Notes: generated by a model not told the origin, from the sequence alone. Numbered from the stretch's first letter, positions 1 through 8,620 are shown. The stretch: 16,015 nucleotides of DNA from a virus (IMGVR_UViG_2851955134_000007), one strand, 5' to 3'. A program made the numbers and translations.

Positions 1-1164
1 TTACGCCTTCTTTATATCCTCCATAATTCCAGAGTGGGACATATTTGGGACATTATCACCAAAAATGTCGTCTATTTTCCTCGCATGCTCTGTCAAATGA
101 TTAGGCGCAAGGTGAGCATACCTACGAACCATTTCTATGGACTCCCATCCGCCCATTTCCTGAAGCACTGATAATGGGACGCCTGACTGAATCAGCCAGC
201 TTGCCCAGGTGTGTCTGAGGTCATGGAAACGGAAATCTTCAATTCCTGCACGACGACAAGCTGATAGCCATGATGTCTTGCTGTCGATGCGCATCTTCCT
301 GACCGCAGGCGTTGATGTTCCATCTGCTCGCTTAGCCGCCTTGGTATGTACAAACACCCATTTGTGATGCTTGCCTATTTGATCACGCAACACTTTACAG
401 GCGGTATCGTTCAGCGCCACACCAATGGCGCGGTTTGATTTGCTCTCTTCTGGATTCACCCAGGCAACTCGTCGCTGCATGTCGATTTGTTGCCATTCCA
501 GATTTATGATGTTCGACTTTCTCAGACCAGTTGCCAGCGCAAACTTGACGACAGATTTCAGTGGTTCGGGGCACTCATCAATAAGGCGTTTTGCTTCCTC
601 CTTTTCCAGCCATCTGACTCGCTTGTTTCTGACCGCTGGTATCTTGATGACAGGCGCTTTTTCCAGCCACTTCCAGTCGCGTTCTGCAGCACGGAGAATG
701 GCCTTTATCATGGCAAGATGCTTTGCCTTTGTCTGAGTTGATACTGGCTTTGGTTCATAAACAGGCGGTTCTTTACCTTTCCTGATGGCGGCCTGAACTT
801 TCTGTTTCCATATTTCTTTCGTCTTTCTGTTATGCATTCTGCTTACAGCAGAGTAAATCTTTGCCTCCGAGATATCTTTAAGCCTTATACCCTCAAAATG
901 TTCAAGCCAGAACTCAATCCGGCTTTTATCTGAATCGAGAGATTTTTTATCAGCTTTTTCCTCAAGCCATCTTAGGCAGGCCTCTTCAAAAGTGACATCA
1001 GGTAAATCCCCTAGCTTTTCTACTCGCCAGAGTTCTGCTTTTCGCTTGTCGTGCAACTCCTGAGCTTGCCGCTTGTCCTTTGTGCCAAGAGATTCCTTAA
1101 TTCGTTTCCCGCCCGGGAGCGAATACGAGGCATACCATATTTTATTTCTGCGGAAGAGTGACAT
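1..1164 (-). CDS. int: Tyrosine-type phage integrase, 387 aa, lambdoid (phage 21 / DLP12 IntD-like)
   Basis: Complete ORF with GAGG Shine-Dalgarno upstream of the ATG at 1164. C-terminal catalytic motifs [10 protein letters not shown] and VRRYAHL (catalytic Tyr). N-terminal arm-binding region resembles lambdoid integrases as recalled. Stop codon sits at window positions 1-3. Confidence 0.9.
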
Positions 1165-1391
1165 TTTCTTTCCTCTGTTATGCCATCACCCGCGCTCACC
1201 TGGACAGTATGCAGCGGAGACTGAAGCGCCGCAATGCAGGCTTGCCGTGTTGTGAGGTAAGGAGATTTTGGCTTGGTTGGATCTTTACGTGTTGCCTGTA
1301 GGCGGCCTGTTCGTATCCAGTTGGTGGCGGTTGGTCTGGATATCTTAAGAAACTGACAGGCCTCATCGAGTGTGAGGCTGTATGATTCCAT
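1020..1391 (-). CDS. xis: Excisionase-like HTH protein (AlpA/Xis family); 3-prime end uncertain
   Basis: ATG at 1391 preceded by GAGG at 5 nt spacing. N-terminal HTH-like segment [24 protein letters not shown]. The ORF runs 145 nt into int, which is unusually long, so the C-terminal extension may not be real. Confidence 0.55.
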
Positions 1392-1641
1392 GGTTACCTC
1401 TGCTTTTTGAACGCATGTCACGTAACTTCTTAATGTGTTCTGCCGTTTCGATCTCTTCTGCTATCCGATCTGCATCAGCTTTATTCACAGGTTCAAAGTC
1501 ATGATTAAAGCGGAACATGCTGGCGATACATGTTCTGCCTTTTCGGATGTAGTGAACTTTGTTGTGGGTAGAACGCAGGATTTTGCAGGGAGTGCCGTGG
1601 TGGTCGACGTACCAGGTGTTAGGCAAAATGATTCTGAACAT
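1363..1641 (-). CDS. Hypothetical prophage early-left protein, 92 aa
   Basis: ORF with good RBS (GAGGTG about 6 nt upstream of the ATG at 1641); overlaps the xis start by 29 nt. No family recognised. Confidence 0.5.
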   Translation of the reverse strand: MFRIILPNTWYVDHHGTPCKILRSTHNKVHYIRKGRTCIASMFRFNHDFEPVNKADADRIAEEIETAEHIKKLRDMRSKSRGNHGIIQPHTR

Positions 1642-1688
1642 TTTTACACCTCAGTTGGACGATGTTGAAATTTGCTGCTTTGAGGCCA

Positions 1689-1907
1689 TCACAATCCCCA
1701 TTGTTTGTTCTTAAGTTCGATCTCCTCCTGGCAGCTTGCACAAGTCCGACAACCCTGAACGGCCAGGCGTCTTCGTTCATCTATGGGATCGCCACACTCA
1801 CAACAATGAGTGGCAGATATAACCTGGTGGTTCAGACGACGCATTTTTATTGCTGTATTGCGCTGTAATTCTTCGATTTCTGATGCTGAATCAATGATGT
1901 CTGCCAT
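1689..1907 (-). CDS. Small zinc-ribbon protein, TraR/DksA-like C4 type, 72 aa
   Basis: Two CxxC pairs (C-C-E-C and C-R-T-C, about 14 residues apart) in a 72 aa ORF, as in phage TraR/DksA-family proteins. Confidence 0.6.
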   Translation of the reverse strand: MADIIDSASEIEELQRNTAIKMRRLNHQVISATHCCECGDPIDERRRLAVQGCRTCASCQEEIELKNKQWGL

Positions 1908-1957
1908 CTTCCATTAATCCCTGAATTGTTGGTTAATACGCTTGAGGGTGAATGCGA

Positions 1958-1985
1958 ATAATAAAAAAGGAGCCTGTAGCTCCCT
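1958..1985 (-). terminator. Intrinsic terminator candidate for leftward transcription
   Basis: Minus-strand hairpin GGAGC-loop-GCTCC (1969-1983) followed by a T run (plus-strand A run 1963-1968). Lies between the 71 aa ORF stop and the zinc-ribbon gene start. Confidence 0.45.
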
Positions 1986-2005
1986 GATGATTTTGCTTTT
2001 CATGT

Positions 2006-2221
2006 TCATCGCTCCTTAAAGACGCCGTTTAACATGCCGATCGCCAGGCTTAAATGAGTCGGTGTGAATCCCATCAGCGTTACCGTTTCGCGGTGCTTCT
2101 TCAGTACGCTACGGCAAATGTCATCGACGTTTTTATCCGGAAACTGCTGTCTGGCTTTTTTGATTTCAGAATTAGCCTGACGGGCTATGCTGCGAAGGGC
2201 GTTTTCCTGCTGAGGTGTCAT
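2006..2221 (-). CDS. Hypothetical protein, 71 aa (MTPQQENALRSIARQ...)
   Basis: Start chosen at the ATG at 2221, which overlaps the stop of an upstream 27 aa ORF (ATGA). The 104 aa extension in the ORF track has no RBS support. Confidence 0.45.
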   Translation of the reverse strand: MTPQQENALRSIARQANSEIKKARQQFPDKNVDDICRSVLKKHRETVTLMGFTPTHLSLAIGMLNGVFKER

Positions 2222-2301
2222 TGAACAAGTCCCATGTCGGCAAGCATAAGCACACAGAATATGAAGCCCGCTGCCAGAAAAATGCATTCCGTGGTTGTCA
2301 T
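2218..2301 (-). CDS. Putative small hydrophobic peptide, 27 aa (MTTTECIFLAAGFIFCVLMLADMGLVQ)
   Basis: Below the ORF-track size cutoff; found by reading the strand. GGAGG about 4 nt upstream of the ATG. Hydrophobic core long enough for one transmembrane helix. Stop overlaps the start of the 71 aa ORF. Confidence 0.3.
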   Translation of the reverse strand: MTTTECIFLAAGFIFCVLMLADMGLVQ

Positions 2302-2369
2302 GCAGCCTCCCGACGGGCAAGAATCCTTGAGCCGAACGCCATCAACTCTCCACGATCAACGGTCGTAAA

Positions 2370-2993
2370 GTGGCAGTGTGTACGGGGGTACAGCAGGTAG
2401 CGCAGATCATCAACGGTGTGTTCAGCCAGTTACTGGCAACTTTCCCGGCGAGCCTGGCTAACCGTGACCAGAACGAAGTGAACGAAATCCGTCGCCAGTG
2501 GGTTCTGGCTTTTCGGGAAAACGGGATCACCACGATGGAACAGGTTAACGCAGGAATGCGCGTAGCCCGTCGGCAGAATCGACCATTTCTGCCATCACCC
2601 GGGCAGTTTGTTGCATGGTGCCGGGAAGAAGCATCCGTTATCGCCGGACTGCCAAACGTCAGCGAGCTGGTTGATATGGTTTACGAGTATTGCCGGAAGC
2701 GAGGCCTGTATCCGGATGCGGAGTCTTATCCGTGGAAATCAAACGCGCACTACTGGCTGGTTACCAACCTGTATCAGAACATGCGGGCCAATGCGCTTAC
2801 TGATGCGGAATTACGCCGTAAGGCCGCAGATGAGCTTGTCCATATGACTGCGAGAATTAACCGTGGTGAGGCGATCCCTGAACCAGTAAAACAACTTCCT
2901 GTCATGGGCGGTAGACCTCTAAATCGTGCACAGGCTCTGGCGAAGATCTCAGAAATCAAAGCTAAGTTCGGACTAAAAGGAGCAAGTGTATGA
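2370..2993 (+). pseudogene. P: Replication protein P, C-terminal fragment (about 200 aa); N-terminus deleted
   Basis: From about 2385 (VQQVAQIINGVFSQLLATFPASLANRDQNEVNEIRRQWVLAFRENG...) the translation matches the C-terminal part of lambda P as recalled. Upstream sequence is unrelated and the only in-frame start is a GTG without RBS. Confidence 0.85.
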
Positions 2994-3280
2994 CGGGCAA
3001 AGAGGCAATTATTCATTACCTGGGGACGCATAATAGCTTCTGTGCGCCGGACGTTGCCGCGCTAACAGGCGCAACAGTAACCAGCATAAATCAGGCCGCG
3101 GCTAAAATGGCACGGGCAGGTCTTCTGGTTATCGAAGGTAAGGTCTGGCGAACGGTGTATTACCGGTTTGCTACTAGGGAAGAACGGGAAGGAAAGATGA
3201 GCACGAACCTGATTTTTAAGGAGTGTCGCCAGAGTGCCGCGATGAAACGGGTATTGGCGGTATATGGAGTTAAAAGATGA
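2990..3280 (+). CDS. ren: Ren protein, 96 aa
   Basis: MTGKEAIIHYLGTHNSFCAPDVAALTGATVTS... matches lambda Ren as recalled. ATG overlaps the P stop (ATGA). Confidence 0.85.
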   Translation: MTGKEAIIHYLGTHNSFCAPDVAALTGATVTSINQAAAKMARAGLLVIEGKVWRTVYYRFATREEREGKMSTNLIFKECRQSAAMKRVLAVYGVKR

Positions 3281-3305
3281 CCATCTACATTACTGAGCTA
3301 ATAAC

Positions 3306-3337
3306 AGGCCTGCTGGTAATCGCAGGCCTTTTTATTT
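3306..3337 (+). terminator. Rho-independent terminator, tR2-like
   Basis: Stem AGGCCTGC (3306-3313) / GCAGGCCT (3322-3329) with 8-nt loop, followed by TTTTTATTT. Same position (between ren and ninB) as lambda tR2. Confidence 0.7.
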
Positions 3338-3353
3338 GGGGGAGAGGGAAGTC

Positions 3354-3794
3354 ATGAAAAAACTAACCTTTGAAATTCGATCTCCAGCACATCAGCAAAA
3401 CGCTATTCACGCAGTACAGCAAATCCTTCCAGACCCAACCAAACCAATCGTAGTAACCATTCAGGAACGCAACCGCAGCTTAGACCAAAACAGGAAGCTA
3501 TGGGCCTGCTTAGGTGACGTCTCTCGTCAGGTTGAATGGCATGGTCGCTGGCTGGATGCAGAAAGCTGGAAGTGTGTGTTTACCGCAGCATTAAAGCAGC
3601 AGGATGTTGTTCCTAACCTTGCCGGGAATGGCTTTGTGGTAATAGGCCAGTCAACCAGCAGGATGCGTGTAGGCGAATTTGCGGAGCTATTAGAGCTTAT
3701 ACAGGCATTCGGTACAGAGCGTGGCGTTAAGTGGTCAGACGAAGCGAGACTGGCTCTGGAGTGGAAAGCGAGATGGGGAGATCGGGCTGCATGA
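3354..3794 (+). CDS. ninB: NinB (recombination mediator, Orf family), 146 aa
   Basis: MKKLTFEIRSPAHQQNAIHAVQQILPDPTKPIVVTIQERNRSLDQNRKLW... recognised as lambda NinB. GGGAGAGGGAAG RBS upstream. Confidence 0.9.
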   Translation: MKKLTFEIRSPAHQQNAIHAVQQILPDPTKPIVVTIQERNRSLDQNRKLWACLGDVSRQVEWHGRWLDAESWKCVFTAALKQQDVVPNLAGNGFVVIGQSTSRMRVGEFAELLELIQAFGTERGVKWSDEARLALEWKARWGDRAA

Positions 3795-4318
3795 CTATCA
3801 AATCAAATACGCCAGCACACGACAAGGACTGCTGGCAAACGCCGCTTTGGCTTTTTGATGCACTGGATATTGAGTTTGGATTCTGGCTGGATTCGGCAGC
3901 GAGCGACAAAAATGCTCTGTGTGCTCACTGGCTAACTGAGGCCGACGACGCGCTCAATTCTGAGTGGGTAAGCCACGGTGCAATCTGGAATAACCCACCG
4001 TACAGCAATATCAGGCCGTGGGTGGAAAAAGCCGCTGAGCAGTGCATACAACAGCGACAGACGGTAGTTATGCTTGTGCCAGAGGATATGTCAGTCGGAT
4101 GGTTCAGCAAGGCTCTGGAGAGTGTCGACGAAGTTCGCATTATCACTGATGGACGGATTAATTTTATCGAACCATCGACAGGGTTGGAGAAGAAGGGAAA
4201 CAGCAAAGGCTCCATGCTGCTGATTTGGCGACCGTTCATCAGTCCTCGACGGATGTTTACTACCGTATCCAAAGCGGCATTGATGGCGATCGGGCAGGGC
4301 GTCAGGAGGGCGGCATGA
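3791..4318 (+). CDS. Orphan DNA N6-adenine methyltransferase (phage Dam-like), about 175 aa
   Basis: [13 protein letters not shown] motif and the catalytic NPPY tetrapeptide (AIWNNPPYS). ATG overlaps the ninB stop (ATGA). No restriction endonuclease gene adjacent. Confidence 0.8.
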
Positions 4319-4491
4319 GGCGACAGCGACGAAGTTTCACCGACATCATCTGCGAAAACTGCAAATACCTTCCAACGAAACGCTCCAGAAATAAACGCAA
4401 GCCAATCCCAAAAGAATCTGACGTAAAAACCTTCAATTACACAGCTCACCTGTGGGATATCCGGTGGCTAAGATATCGTGCGAGGAAATGA
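4315..4491 (+). CDS. ninE: NinE, 58 aa
   Basis: [58 protein letters not shown] matches lambdoid NinE as recalled. GGAGGG RBS; ATG overlaps the methyltransferase stop. Confidence 0.8.
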
Positions 4492-4493
4492 CA

Positions 4494-4835
4494 ATGGATT
4501 ATTCACAGTTAAGTGATTTTGAAATTAACAGAATGGTAGGAGACATAATTTTTAAAGGCCTTTGGGCAAGTAAACCGGAAACATCAGGGAATAACATCAA
4601 CAAATGGTATTACGGAAATGCTGATACAACTTTTGAGCCATTAAATCATTTGCCTGACTACTGCAATGATCCGAGCGCTTCATGGCCGATTATTGAGAAA
4701 TACAGGATTTCTATCTTAGACCAGTTAACTGAATGGTGTGTGGATGCAAAAGGCGTAAGCCCAATATTTGATACCAGACCTCTCCGCGCCGCCATGATTG
4801 TCTTTCTCCTGATGCAGGAGGCCAATAATGCTTAG
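4494..4835 (+). CDS. Hypothetical nin-region protein, 113 aa ([22 protein letters not shown]...)
   Basis: ORF directly after ninE. Start taken at the second ATG (4494), 8 nt after GAGG; an alternative ATG at 4488 overlaps the ninE stop. No family recognised. Confidence 0.55.
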
Positions 4836-5022
4836 CCCATCTCAATCCCTTCAATACCTGAAAGGAAGCATAGAGCGGGCTTCAATGAGCACAGAGTGGA
4901 TTCTATCTAGGTTTAGCGCATACAGAAGATTGCCGGTAAAGGGCATGCCAAGCAAGTCGATGCTGCATATGCAAAAGAATGCGCGCTGGAAGGTATGGCG
5001 AAAACACAGGTTATGTGGCTGA
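4828..5022 (+). CDS. Hypothetical small basic protein, 64 aa
   Basis: GGAGG 6 nt upstream of the ATG; start overlaps the stop of the preceding ORF. No motif recognised. Confidence 0.4.
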
Positions 5023-5041
5023 AAGAGGGGATTATTAAGGC

Positions 5042-5404
5042 GTGAATACCTACAGCATCACATTACCCTGGCCTCCGAGCAATAATCGCTATTACCGCCA
5101 TAATCGCGGGCGCACGCACGTCAGCGCAGAGGGGCAGGCATACCGCGATAACGTCGCCAGAATCATTAAAAACGCAATGCTGGATATCGGCCTGGCTATC
5201 CCTGTGAAAATCCGCATTGAGTGCCACATGCCGGATCGCCGTCGCCGTGACCTGGATAATCTGCAAAAAGCCGCTTTTGACGCACTCACTAAAGCAGGTT
5301 TCTGGCTGGATGATGCTCAGGTCGTTGATTACCGCGTTGTGAAGATGCCTGTTACCAAAGGTGGGAGGCTGGAACTGACCATCACCGAAATGGGGAATGA
5401 ATGA
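5042..5404 (+). CDS. rusA: RusA Holliday-junction resolvase, 120 aa
   Basis: [42 protein letters not shown]... recognised as E. coli DLP12 RusA. GTG start. Confidence 0.9.
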
Positions 5405-5541
5405 TGTTTGAGTTTAATATGGCAGAACTTCTTCGCCACCGCTGGATGCGCCTGCGCTTATATCGTTTCCCCAGTTCTGTTTTGACCGATTACCGAATAC
5501 TGAGGAATTACGCCAAAACCCTGACAGGAGCAGGAGTATGA
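5401..5541 (+). CDS. ylcG: Small protein YlcG-like, 46 aa
   Basis: [49 protein letters not shown], read manually. Start overlaps the rusA stop; same position as ylcG in DLP12 as recalled. Confidence 0.55.
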
Positions 5542-5626
5542 AGTCAGAGATAACAATCAACTAATACTGTTTTATTGATTTTTGCTTGTAATTGGCGTTC
5601 TGGTCTGATTTTTGTGGAGTAAGTTG

Positions 5627-6010
5627 ATGCGTGATATTCAGATGGTTCTTGAGCGTTGGGGAGCGTGGGCGGCTAATAATCATGAAGATGTGACCTGGTC
5701 GTCCATTGCCGCCGGTTTTAAGGGATTAATTACTTCAAAAGTAAAATCTCGCCCGCAATGTTGTGACGATGACGCGATGATCATTTGCGGGTGCATGGCC
5801 CGTCTGAAAAAGAACAACAGCGATTTGCACGATTTATTAGTAGATTATTATGTAGTCGGTATGACATTCATGTCACTGGCAGGTAAGCATTGCTGCTCTG
5901 ATGGTTATATCGGGAAAAGGTTACAGAAGGCTGAGGGCATAATTGAAGGGATGTTAATGGCATTAGATATCCGGTTAGAGATGGATATCGTTGTTAATAA
6001 CTCTAATTAA
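5627..6010 (+). CDS. quuD: Late-gene antiterminator Q, phage-82 type, 127 aa
   Basis: [33 protein letters not shown]... with Cys clusters [13 protein letters not shown] and KHCCSDG. Recognised as DLP12 QuuD. The ORF-track start at 5612 is an upstream extension. Confidence 0.85.
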
Positions 6011-6043
6011 TATGCCAATTGTTTACTAAAAATTATTAAAAAT

Positions 6044-6190
6044 GGGGCGTTGAGACGCCCCCAAAAATAAAGGGTAATATATAACAGAAGGTTTATATAG
6101 TTAGAAGCAAGGTTGTGCTTCTAAAGGAAGTGGCTTGAGGGAGCCACTTATATGTTGGGGAGGCAAAGCCTCCCGCAACATATCTTTTTC
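6044..6190 (+). promoter_or_regulatory. Late-promoter / terminator region between Q and convergent nmpC
   Basis: Four inverted repeats: GGGGCGT-TGAG-ACGCCCC (6044-6061), GAAGCA-AGGTTG-TGCTTC (about 6104-6125), AAGTGGCT-TGAGGG-AGCCACTT (about 6128-6149) and a 34-nt near-palindrome (6150-6183) followed by CTTTTTC. Candidate -35 TTGAGA (6050-6055) and -10 TAATAT (6075-6080), spacing not optimal. Confidence 0.4.
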
Positions 6191-6199
6191 GTAATCAGA

Positions 6200-7160
6200 T
6201 TAGAACTGATACACCAGACCTACAGCGACGATGTCGTCGGTATCAATACCAGCTGTTTTGGTAAACTTACTATCGTCAATTAAGTTGATTTTGTAATCAA
6301 CAAAAGTGGACATGTTTTTATTAAAGTAGTAAGTAGCACCGACATCGACATACTTGACTAAGTCTCGGTCACCATGAACACCAAGGTCTTTACCTTTTGA
6401 CTGAAGGTAAGCAACAGATGGTCGCAGACCGAAGTCAAACTGATATTGTGCTACTGCTTCAAAGTTTTGTGCTTTGTTTGCAATATGGTTATTACCAAAA
6501 ACGGTCATATTCTGAGTTTCAGAATATGTGGTAGCCAGATAGATATTGTTCGCATCATATTTCAGGCCTGCAGCCCATACTTCCGCATTTTTGCCGGAGG
6601 CATTGAATTTGCTCTTACCATAGGCGACCTGACCGTCAGTGCGATCTGATTTAGCATAGGTTGCACCCACGCCGAATCCTTCATACTCATAAGTAGTGGA
6701 GAAACCGAAACCATCACCATTGGCTTCAGTTACGTCAGTGCGGTCATTTTTACCCTGATACTGAGCAGCAAAGTTCAGGCCATCGACCAGACCAAAGAAG
6801 TCGTTGTTACGATAGGTTGCAACACCAGTGGTGCGACCAGTCATGAACACATCTGTTTGGGTCCAGGTATCGCCACCGAATTCTGGCAGAACGTCAGTCC
6901 ACGCACCGATGTCGTATGCTACACCGTAGTTACGGCCGTAATCGATTGAGCCGTAGTCACCGAATTTCAGGCCTGCAAATGCAAGACGGGTTTTGTCTTT
7001 GGAGGAACCTTGAGATTCAGCGCGGTTGCCTTTGAATTCATATTCCCACTGACCGAAACCAGTCAGTTGATCGTTGATTTGGGTTTCACCTTTGAAGCCA
7101 AGACGGGCATAAGTAGTATCACCATCATCTGCATCGTTAGATGAAAAGTAGTGCTTGGCA
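6200..7160 (-). pseudogene. nmpC: Porin NmpC (OmpC/OmpD family), 3-prime portion from codon 44 to stop, cut off by IS10
   Basis: Translation ...[42 protein letters not shown]... to C-terminal ...VGLVYQF (terminal Phe typical of outer-membrane beta-barrels). The MRGSLSA start in the ORF track is read-through from the IS10 end, not a real start. Confidence 0.9.
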
Positions 7161-7173
7161 CTGAGAGATCCCC

Positions 7174-8382
7174 TCATAATTTCCCCAAAACGTAACCATG
7201 TGTGAATAGATTTTGAGTAAGCAGGGTTGCAGCCACGAGTGAGTCTTCCCTTGTTATTGTGTAGCCAGAATGCCGCAAAACTTCCATGCCTAAGCGAACT
7301 GTTGAGAGTACGTTTCGATTTCTGACTGTGTTAGCCTGGAAGTGCTTGTCCCAACCTTGTTTCTGAGCATGAACGCCCGCAAGCCAACATGTTAGTTGAA
7401 GCATCAGGGCGATTAGCAGCATGATATCAAAACGCTCTGAGCTGCTCGTTCGGCTATGGCGTAGGCCTAGTCCGTAGGCAGGACTTTTCAAGTCTCGGAA
7501 GGTTTCTTCAATCTGCATTCGCTTCGAATAGATATTAACAAGTTGTTTGGGTGTTCGAATTTCAACAGGTAAGTTAGTTGCTAGAATCCATGGCTCCTTT
7601 GCCGACGCTGAGTAGATTTTAGGTGACGGGTGGTGACAATGAGTCCGTGTCGAGCGCTGATTTTTTCGGCCTTTAGAGCGAGATTTATACAATAGAATTT
7701 GGCATGAGATTGGATTGCTTTTAGTCAGCCTCTTATAGCCTAAAGTCTTTGAGTGACTAGATGACATATCATGTAAGTTGCTGATAGGTTTCCAGTTTTC
7801 CGCTCCTAGGTCTGCATATTGTACTTTTCCTCTTACTCGACTTAACCAGTACCAACCCAGCTTCTCAACGGATTTATACCATGGCACTTTAAAGCCAGCA
7901 TCACTGACAATGAGCGGTGTGGTGTTACTCGGTAGAATGCTCGCAAGGTCGGCTAGAAATTGGTCATGAGCTTTCTTTGAACATTGCTCTGAAAGCGGGA
8001 ACGCTTTCTCATAAAGAGTAACAGAACGACCGTGTAGTGCGACTGAAGCTCGCAATACCATAAGCCGTTTTTGCTCACGGATATCAGACCAGTCAACAAG
8101 TACAATGGGCATCGTATTGCCCGAACAGATAAAGCTAGCATGCCAACGGTATACAGCGAGTCGCTCTTTGTGGAGGTGACGATTACCTAACAATCGGTCG
8201 ATTCGTTTGATGTTATGTTTTGTTCTCGCTTTGGTTGGCAGGTTACGGCCAAGTTCGGTAAGAGTGAGAGTTTTACAGTCAAGTAAGGCGTGGCAAGCCA
8301 ACGTTAAGCTGTTGAGTCGTTTTAAGTGTAATTCGGGGCAGAATTGGTAAAGAGAGTCGTGTAAAATATCGAGTTCGCACAT
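7174..8382 (-). CDS. tnp: IS10 transposase, 402 aa
   Basis: [71 protein letters not shown]... recognised as IS10/Tn10 transposase. Start 108 bp from the outside end, as in IS10. Confidence 0.95.
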
Positions 8383-8443
8383 TTTGTTGTCTGATTATTG
8401 ATTTTTGGCGAAACCATTTGATCATATGACAAGATGTGTATCT
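8375..8443 (+). ncRNA. IS10 RNA-OUT antisense RNA (position by analogy with canonical IS10)
   Basis: Region antisense to the transposase 5-prime end; sequence TCGCACATTTTGTTGTCTGATTATTGATTTTTGGCGAAACCATTTGATCATATGACAAG resembles RNA-OUT as recalled and contains the Dam GATC site. Exact ends not determined from sequence. Confidence 0.45.
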
Positions 8444-8489
8444 ACCTTAACTTAATGATTTTGATAAAAATCATTAGGGGATTCATCAG

Positions 8490-8620
8490 TGCTTGGCATT
8501 AACTTTCCCGTACAGATCCAGCTTGTTACTGTCTTTATTATAAATTTCAGCTGCCTGAGCAGACATCGTCATCAGTACTGATGCAGCTACAGCAGAAATT
8601 GCCACTGTTAATTTTTTCAT
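8490..8620 (-). pseudogene. nmpC: Porin NmpC, 5-prime portion (signal peptide plus first mature residues), separated from the rest by IS10
   Basis: Minus-strand translation MKKLTVAISAVAASVLMTMSAQAAEIYNKDSNKLDLYGKVNAKH: signal peptide with AQA-AE cleavage site. Reading frame joins exactly to the 3-prime portion once IS10 and one repeat copy are removed (1083 nt, 360 codons plus stop). Confidence 0.9.

Follow-up and report, generated by a model that had tools for sequence, protein, structure and literature searches.

An orphan phage Dam-family adenine methylase gene in the nin region of a DLP12-type defective prophage

The stretch of viral DNA analysed here (IMGVR_UViG_2851955134_000007, 16,015 nucleotides, henceforth the window) carries an intact gene for a 175 aa N6-adenine DNA methyltransferase, embedded in a chain of overlapping nin genes. 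Very probably it is the standard nin-region Dam known as M.EcoVT2Dam: an enzyme that methylates GATC, that in a live phage would be produced as a delayed-early protein, that here would be an untranscribed passenger and that would be redundant if it were expressed. Gene, family, specificity and genomic location are all on record already, with entries in Pfam, TIGRFAM and PHROGs and with the REBASE name M.EcoVT2Dam. An initial annotation of the window had seen an orphan phage N6-adenine methyltransferase within a coupled nin chain of a cryptic prophage and had added that the enzyme could change the host methylome. The former description stands, the latter proposal is not supported.

The methylase open reading frame was read directly and recomputed. 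It is free of frameshifts and internal stops, and the initial annotation had its coordinates and its NPPY motif exactly right. The ATG of the methylase (3791-3793) overlaps the TGA of ninB (3792-3794), and its own TGA (4316-4318) overlaps the ATG of ninE (4315-4317), i.e., the coupling by ATGA on both sides was also correctly recognized. Because the P'-ren and rusA-ylcG junctions are ATGA overlaps as well, this is the normal style of the operon and nothing peculiar to the methylase. An in-frame GTG at 3731 would lengthen the reading frame upstream; the ATG at 3791 is favoured as start since all homologues begin at the equivalent Met. The features of the window are collected in the table.

Features of the window (positions from its first letter; strand where assigned)
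Feature	Position	Strand	Remarks and evidence
intD	1-1164	-	
Second Dam-family methylase, early-left operon, 3' remnant	2298-2390	-	~93 nt, ~31 codons; fused to P'
5'-truncated lambda P (P'), then ren	2387-3280	+	all that is left upstream of the nin genes
Intrinsic terminator between ren and ninB	3306-3339	+	8-bp stem (6 G-C pairs) and T run; terminator scan
ninB, Orf-family recombination mediator	3354-3794	+	PF05772 2e-54; 99.5% DNA identity to lambda ninB
GGGGAG, Shine-Dalgarno-like	3775-3780	+	10 nt 5' of the methylase ATG, within the end of ninB
ATGA overlap, methylase start/ninB stop	3791-3794	+	lambda homology ends exactly here
Phage Dam-family N6-adenine DNA methyltransferase gene, orphan, 175 aa	3791-4318	+	PF05869, TIGR01712, phrog_111; 175/175 identity to VT2-Sakai orf32
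FWLDSAAS codons, residues 31-38, first beta strand and loop	3881-3904	+	F31, D34, A36 invariant; strand 31-36 in AlphaFold model
NPPY codons, residues 68-71, catalytic motif IV of N6-adenine methyltransferases	3992-4003	+	invariant in 40 homologues
ATGA overlap, ninE start/methylase stop	4315-4318	+	
ninE	4315-4491	+	PF05322 3e-42; 95% nt identity to lambda ninE over 4322-4488
ninX, P22 NinX family, next in the gene chain	4494-4835	+	PF10765 1e-16; phrog_444 4e-43
quuD, Q-type antiterminator, downstream of the nin genes	5627-6010		
IS4-family (IS10-like) element splitting the nmpC/OmpC-like porin gene	7161-8487		
Transposase ORF of the IS10-like element, 402 aa	7174-8382	-	

Several observations on the nucleotide sequence are added for completeness. 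The G+C content of the methylase gene is 51.9%, that of the window 44.9%. A GATC site (3780-3783) falls between the Shine-Dalgarno-like sequence and the methylase ATG, and the window as a whole contains 35 GATC sites, about 61 being expected from its base composition. A minus-strand reading frame of 174 codons (3925-4449) runs antisense to the last two-thirds of dam and to the whole of ninE. Neither Pfam nor NCBIfam gave a family match for this frame; it was treated as spurious and is probably a by-product of sense-strand codon usage.

The identity of the methylase is given by the Stx2 phage VT2-Sakai. All 175 residues are identical to the product of its orf32 (AP000363, 16434-16961), which is annotated as 'similar to DNA methylase' and is positioned between the homologues of nin146 (ninB) and nin60 (ninE). 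No other methylase-like CDS is found among the annotated VT2-Sakai genes, and a comparison of nine unnamed VT2-Sakai ORFs with Pfam yielded no match to a methyltransferase family. The gene orf32 is the only methylase-like one of this phage and corresponds to M.EcoVT2Dam. The two genes share the ninB-ninE slot, the ATGA overlaps, the orphan state and the reported GATC target. Only the host element differs: a DLP12-type defective prophage devoid of N or pR in the window versus an inducible phage.

Concerning the specificity, a passage in PMC6602927 describes REBASE's M.EcoVT2Dam as an orphan MTase of the E. coli prophage VT2-Sa 'known to target 5'-GATC-3''. Passages in two later papers from the laboratory that cloned the VT-2 enzyme count it among those phage enzymes whose Dam-like action on GATC 'has been shown' (PMC7139368; PMC7556043). 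GATC specificity is thus reported for the methylase of the window by way of these later citations, the 100% identity and the family membership. Restriction-protection assays may miss weaker off-target activity. Where phage GATC methylases are discussed, PMC7139368 also cites a study on the purification and characterisation of T1 Dam. In both papers the specificity common to phage and host GATC methylases is described as convergent (PMC7556043; PMC7139368).

The family assignment is beyond chance by a wide margin. The protein matches the Pfam family PF05869 'Dam' with E=6e-65 and 218.4 bits (cut-off 28.1) over profile positions 1-167 of 169, and the equivalog TIGR01712 'phage N-6-adenine-methyltransferase' with E=1e-79 and 265.9 bits (cut-off 97.05) over the full profile (positions 1-165 of 165). 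PHROG phrog_111 'DNA methyltransferase' is matched at 9e-88, and PF05869 is the sole Pfam match. An alignment with 40 homologues of 59-94% identity shows N68-P69-P70-Y71-S72, D34, A36 and 29 further positions to be invariant; the copy in the window keeps every conserved residue of the family. The FWLDSAAS stretch is probably the equivalent of the AdoMet-binding motif I, a function and a cofactor contact which we infer from its place in the model and its conservation.

The AlphaFold model (pLDDT 87.4, pTM 0.86) depicts a compact alpha/beta domain which has neither an extra lobe nor a recognisable target-recognition domain. Together with the Foldseek comparisons and the invariant acidic D34, it places the protein in the class-I (Rossmann-like) AdoMet methyltransferase fold. 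The best neighbour among solved structures is the methyltransferase domain of PCIF1/CAPAM (E=8e-5, TM ~0.6, ~15% identity), with which the methylase shares the NPP-aromatic catalytic motif. PCIF1/CAPAM is a eukaryotic mRNA cap m6Am enzyme of ~470-490 residues with extra domains; the resemblance is at the level of the fold only. TrmM, CamA and E. coli Dam come next in the Foldseek list with far weaker scores, E. coli Dam at E ~0.04-0.09 and TM ~0.33-0.36. A sequence search of the PDB, either with the single protein or with a 40-sequence profile, returned only noise and detected no PF05869 member; it appears that no solved structure exists for a member of this family. By modelled fold and by motif the methylase is an N6-adenine methyltransferase and is not closely homologous to host Dam.

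T1 Dam and HP1/HP2 Dam are the founding members of PF05869/TIGR01712 and share the orphan phage setting with the methylase. T1 Dam (PF05869, 1.7e-70) is 33% identical and has the motifs SNTP...W.TP, LDAAAS and NPPYS in common with it. It differs by its length of 237 aa, by an N-terminal extension and by an insertion ahead of the last strands, and T1 is a virulent phage which is not lambdoid. The host Dam of E. coli and T4 Dam, which belong to the alpha-class (MethyltransfD12), carry out the same reaction, GATC to G(m6A)TC, using AdoMet, yet no sequence relationship is detectable and the structural similarity is weak (TM ~0.34).

The enzyme and its family are widespread. The same protein is encoded by phage Phi24B, and proteins of 99-100% identity are found in HK97, HK544, Sf6, Sf101 and many Stx1/Stx2 phages. 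At the nucleotide level the gene is present with at least 95% identity in 244 phage records, which comprise HK544, Sf6, Sf101, wild lambda-like isolates and Stx1- and Stx2-converting phages. It is also carried by thousands of E. coli genomes, a large share of the total. Among 5426 complete E. coli genomes, the ninB-dam-ninE-ninX block is covered to at least 80% in 558, and 2305 have a partial match. In a wider circle, a tblastn search of 50,697 phage records gave relatives in 2134 of them, among these phages of Escherichia, Klebsiella, Vibrio, Salmonella, Gordonia and Lactococcus; at the family level, about 4% of the phage genomes sequenced carry such a gene. A profile search (E <= 1e-3) collected 15,610 clusters at 50% identity.

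The position of the gene is that of a lambdoid nin-region gene: on the same strand as its neighbours, between ren/tR2 and Q and flanked by ninB and ninE. By blastn, window positions 2387-3794 are 99.5% identical to lambda 39,677-41,084, a segment which encompasses P from nt 96, ren, the spacer and ninB. Homology to lambda stops at 3794 (lambda 41,084) and resumes within ninE at 4322 (lambda 42,097). The ninB-ninE interval of lambda consists of ninC and ninD; in the window, in VT2-Sakai and in others dam is found there instead. The slot in the delayed-early nin operon is exactly the same, whereas the content is unrelated, NinC being PAPS-reductase-like. These alignments indicate that dam is a clean cassette which replaces lambda ninC and ninD, a case of lambdoid mosaicism with junctions at gene boundaries. 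Between ren and ninB the sequence agrees with lambda throughout (100% identity), and the hairpin which it contains at 3306-3339 has a fold energy of -17.9 kcal/mol. We take this hairpin to correspond to lambda tR2, which is located in the ren-ninB spacer. tR2 is the terminator that makes expression of the nin region N-dependent.

Farther downstream the window differs from other DLP12 elements. NinX is intact (113 aa), whereas in the genome of strain TUM9803 it is annotated with an internal stop. The 206 bp between ninX and rusA (4836-5041) are non-coding and correspond to a 3' fragment of ybcO (DUF1364), a pseudogene in the TUM9803 annotation. DLP12 of the K-12/B type has ybcN-ninE-ybcO in this place, without dam or ninX.

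A partner endonuclease is not in evidence, as the initial annotation had noted. The genes nearby encode NinB, NinE, NinX, RusA, YlcG, QuuD, Ren and P'. PADLOC, applied to the ten nearest gene products, reported no match to a restriction enzyme or a defence system, and the best PADLOC model for the methylase itself is 'orphan methyltransferase'. RusA is a Holliday-junction resolvase and not a restriction enzyme. Type II restriction-modification systems have an adjacent cognate endonuclease gene; the methylase does not.

What would such an enzyme do in a live phage? We propose a minimal AdoMet-dependent methylase of 175 aa from the T1-Dam/HP1-Dam family that would methylate GATC without a cognate nuclease. 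Its gene would be a delayed-early gene transcribed from pR, and only after N permits read-through of tR2, and its translation would be coupled to that of ninB and ninE via the ATGA overlaps. When lambda DNA replicates rapidly, its methylation by host Dam stays incomplete, only about half of the GATC sites being modified at the time of packaging (PMC3299994). The phage methylase may complete, before packaging, the GATC methylation which the scarce host Dam leaves unfinished on replicating phage DNA, and packaged genomes may thereby be protected in the next host from methylation-sensitive restriction enzymes which cut GATC. Restriction protection in a live phage is plausible and part of established thinking, not a new idea. 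The Radlinska group considers the function of phage Dam enzymes 'still not well understood' (PMC7556043).

The setting in the window is a different one. The entire window matches DLP12, a defective prophage which many E. coli genomes carry by tRNA-Arg (argU), with fimZ on one side and ompT on the other. After intD come small early-left genes (DUF4222, TraR/DksA-like), then the truncated P, ren, the nin genes and quuD. Past quuD are the IS-split OmpC-like porin gene, the lysis genes essD/rrrD/rzpD, bor/iss, nohD, tail-fibre fragments and appY. The window has lost N, pL, pR and the immunity and replication-origin region, with cI, cro, cII and O among the missing genes, and because of this the label of a cryptic prophage, given by the initial annotation, is correct. 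The IS10-like element is flanked by 11 identical nt (7150-7160 and 8488-8498) which are spaced 1338 nt apart; this is consistent with an IS of 1329 bp plus a 9-bp target duplication.

The closest complete genome is that of strain TUM9803 (99.9%), which has a 1.49-kb stretch that is lacking in the window. Window positions 1-2390 align to 1501-3890 of the TUM9803 locus (L001), and those from 2389 onwards align from L001 5378 onwards. At the deletion junction (~2389/2390) the early-left remnants are joined directly to the truncated P. The deletion took most of a second Dam-family methylase gene along with DUF1317, exo and a bet fragment. In TUM9803 this second gene is intact (L001 CDS 3798-4355, minus strand) and is part of the early-left operon on the exo-xis side; its product matches PF05869 at 2e-56 and shares 47% identity with the methylase of the nin region. 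The DLP12 variant of TUM9803 thus has two PF05869 methylases, and E. coli B REL606 retains a longer fragment of the second methylase than the window does.

Is the gene expressed in such an element? Neither the pR promoter nor the N antiterminator is present in it, and tR2 is intact 5' of ninB. A promoter consensus scan of positions 1100-6300 returned five sites against 7.0 expected from shuffled sequence; a simple scan of this kind can miss weak or non-sigma-70 promoters. No promoter-like site was returned between tR2 and the methylase gene. Farther upstream there is a single candidate, at 2295-2324, which agrees with the consensus in 9/12 positions and precedes both P' and tR2. The IS10-like element of the window cannot drive the nin genes or dam because it is located downstream of quuD, in the porin gene. 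A precedent comes from K-12, where rusA of DLP12 is 'normally quiescent' and was activated only by insertion of IS2 or IS10 upstream (PMC1636454); in the window rusA lies 0.7 kb downstream of the methylase in the same transcription unit.

In the inducible phage Phi24B, dam encodes a protein with 100% identity to that of VT2-Sakai. By qPCR, Phi24B dam is among the genes with a pattern 'linked to the lytic cycle', not with the lysogen pattern, and this is as expected of a delayed-early gene dependent on pR and N. Antibodies detected Phi24B Dam in lysogen cultures, signals which the authors credit to spontaneously induced cells. With N and pR deleted, tR2 kept, no convincing promoter at hand and rusA quiescent, the gene in the window is probably silent. 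On the strength of the missing promoter and antiterminator and by analogy with rusA of K-12, we consider it rather likely, though by no means assured, that the methylase is not appreciably transcribed in this prophage.

These data have to be set against the proposal that the cryptic prophage expresses the methylase and that the methylome or the gene regulation of the host is altered, either through a new motif or through GATC sites left unmethylated by Dam, such as protein-protected sites in phase-variable promoters. In favour of the proposal, the reading frame is undamaged and viable phages carry identical copies, the Phi24B orthologue was seen in lysogen cultures, and a weak promoter-like site does exist upstream of P'. 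Nevertheless, the motif is that of host Dam. Since GATC is already methylated in a dam+ E. coli, no motif would be added, and the methylase, if expressed, would be redundant with host Dam. The STEC O111 strain 95NR1 is instructive because it has two copies which are 99% identical to M.EcoVT2Dam (PMC6602927). SMRT methylomes of 95NR1 show GATC, CTGCAG (M.EcoGIII) and CRARCAG, and no motif is attributable to the M.EcoVT2Dam-like copies. We considered CRARCAG as the motif of the methylase and rejected it, as the authors assign it to a type IIG enzyme which is IS-inactivated in a sister strain. A quantitative effect, i.e., extra GATC capacity, requires expression, and the anatomy of the prophage argues against it: N and pR are deleted and tR2 stands upstream. 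The transcript of Phi24B dam is lytic and rusA of DLP12, in the same operon, is quiescent. An expressed methylase with consequences for the host is very improbable in our estimation. In view of the shared GATC motif, the lytic type of expression and the loss of N and pR, the suggested change of the host methylome is poorly supported.

Another possibility is an adenine methyltransferase of relaxed or no specificity, similar in function to M.EcoGII or Hia5, for which GATC would only be the best-studied target and which would have a broad anti-restriction role. The protein is indeed very small and lacks a recognisable target-recognition domain, prophage-borne non-specific adenine methylases exist (PMC3299994), and the GATC specificity is known at second hand. 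Against this, Hia5 and EcoGII form a separate family, alpha-class and Dam-related, Hia5 with DPPY and FxGxG (PMC3299994), and membership of the methylase in that group was rejected: it matches PF05869 only and possesses NPPY but no FxGxG. Further, an enzyme of the very same sequence (100% identity) is listed as GATC-specific, the family member T1 Dam has been purified and characterised according to the passage in PMC7139368 which cites it with phage GATC methylases, and strains carrying the methylase display no unexplained m6A motifs. We regard a non-specific enzyme as highly improbable. Even less credit is due to the notion of an inactive relic which decays along with its defective prophage. 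True, the element is heavily degraded: P is truncated, the second methylase is a remnant, an IS10-like element interrupts the porin gene, and only fragments of ybcO and of the tail genes are left. Yet the methylase frame has neither frameshift nor stop, all invariant residues of the family are in place, and inducible Stx phages encode the identical protein; a dead enzyme is exceedingly improbable. The reading which we prefer remains that of a standard nin-region Dam, with an intact gene that most probably is an untranscribed passenger in a DLP12-type defective prophage at argU.

The cell could in principle gain a second GATC methylase, one non-homologous to host Dam, from read-through at a low level or from chance transcription; we consider this very improbable. 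If true, a second GATC methylase may hit sites protected by regulators, as in switches of the pap or agn43 type, or may back up a lost dam. The outcome would be a subtle shift in phase variation, mismatch repair or prophage stability.

As a discovery the methylase amounts to little: it is an identical copy of a named and characterised enzyme from a very common family, and it resides in a decayed prophage. Two questions pertain to the whole family and not to this locus: why phages of dam+ hosts carry a non-homologous GATC methylase of their own, and how an enzyme of 175 residues without a target-recognition domain reads GATC.
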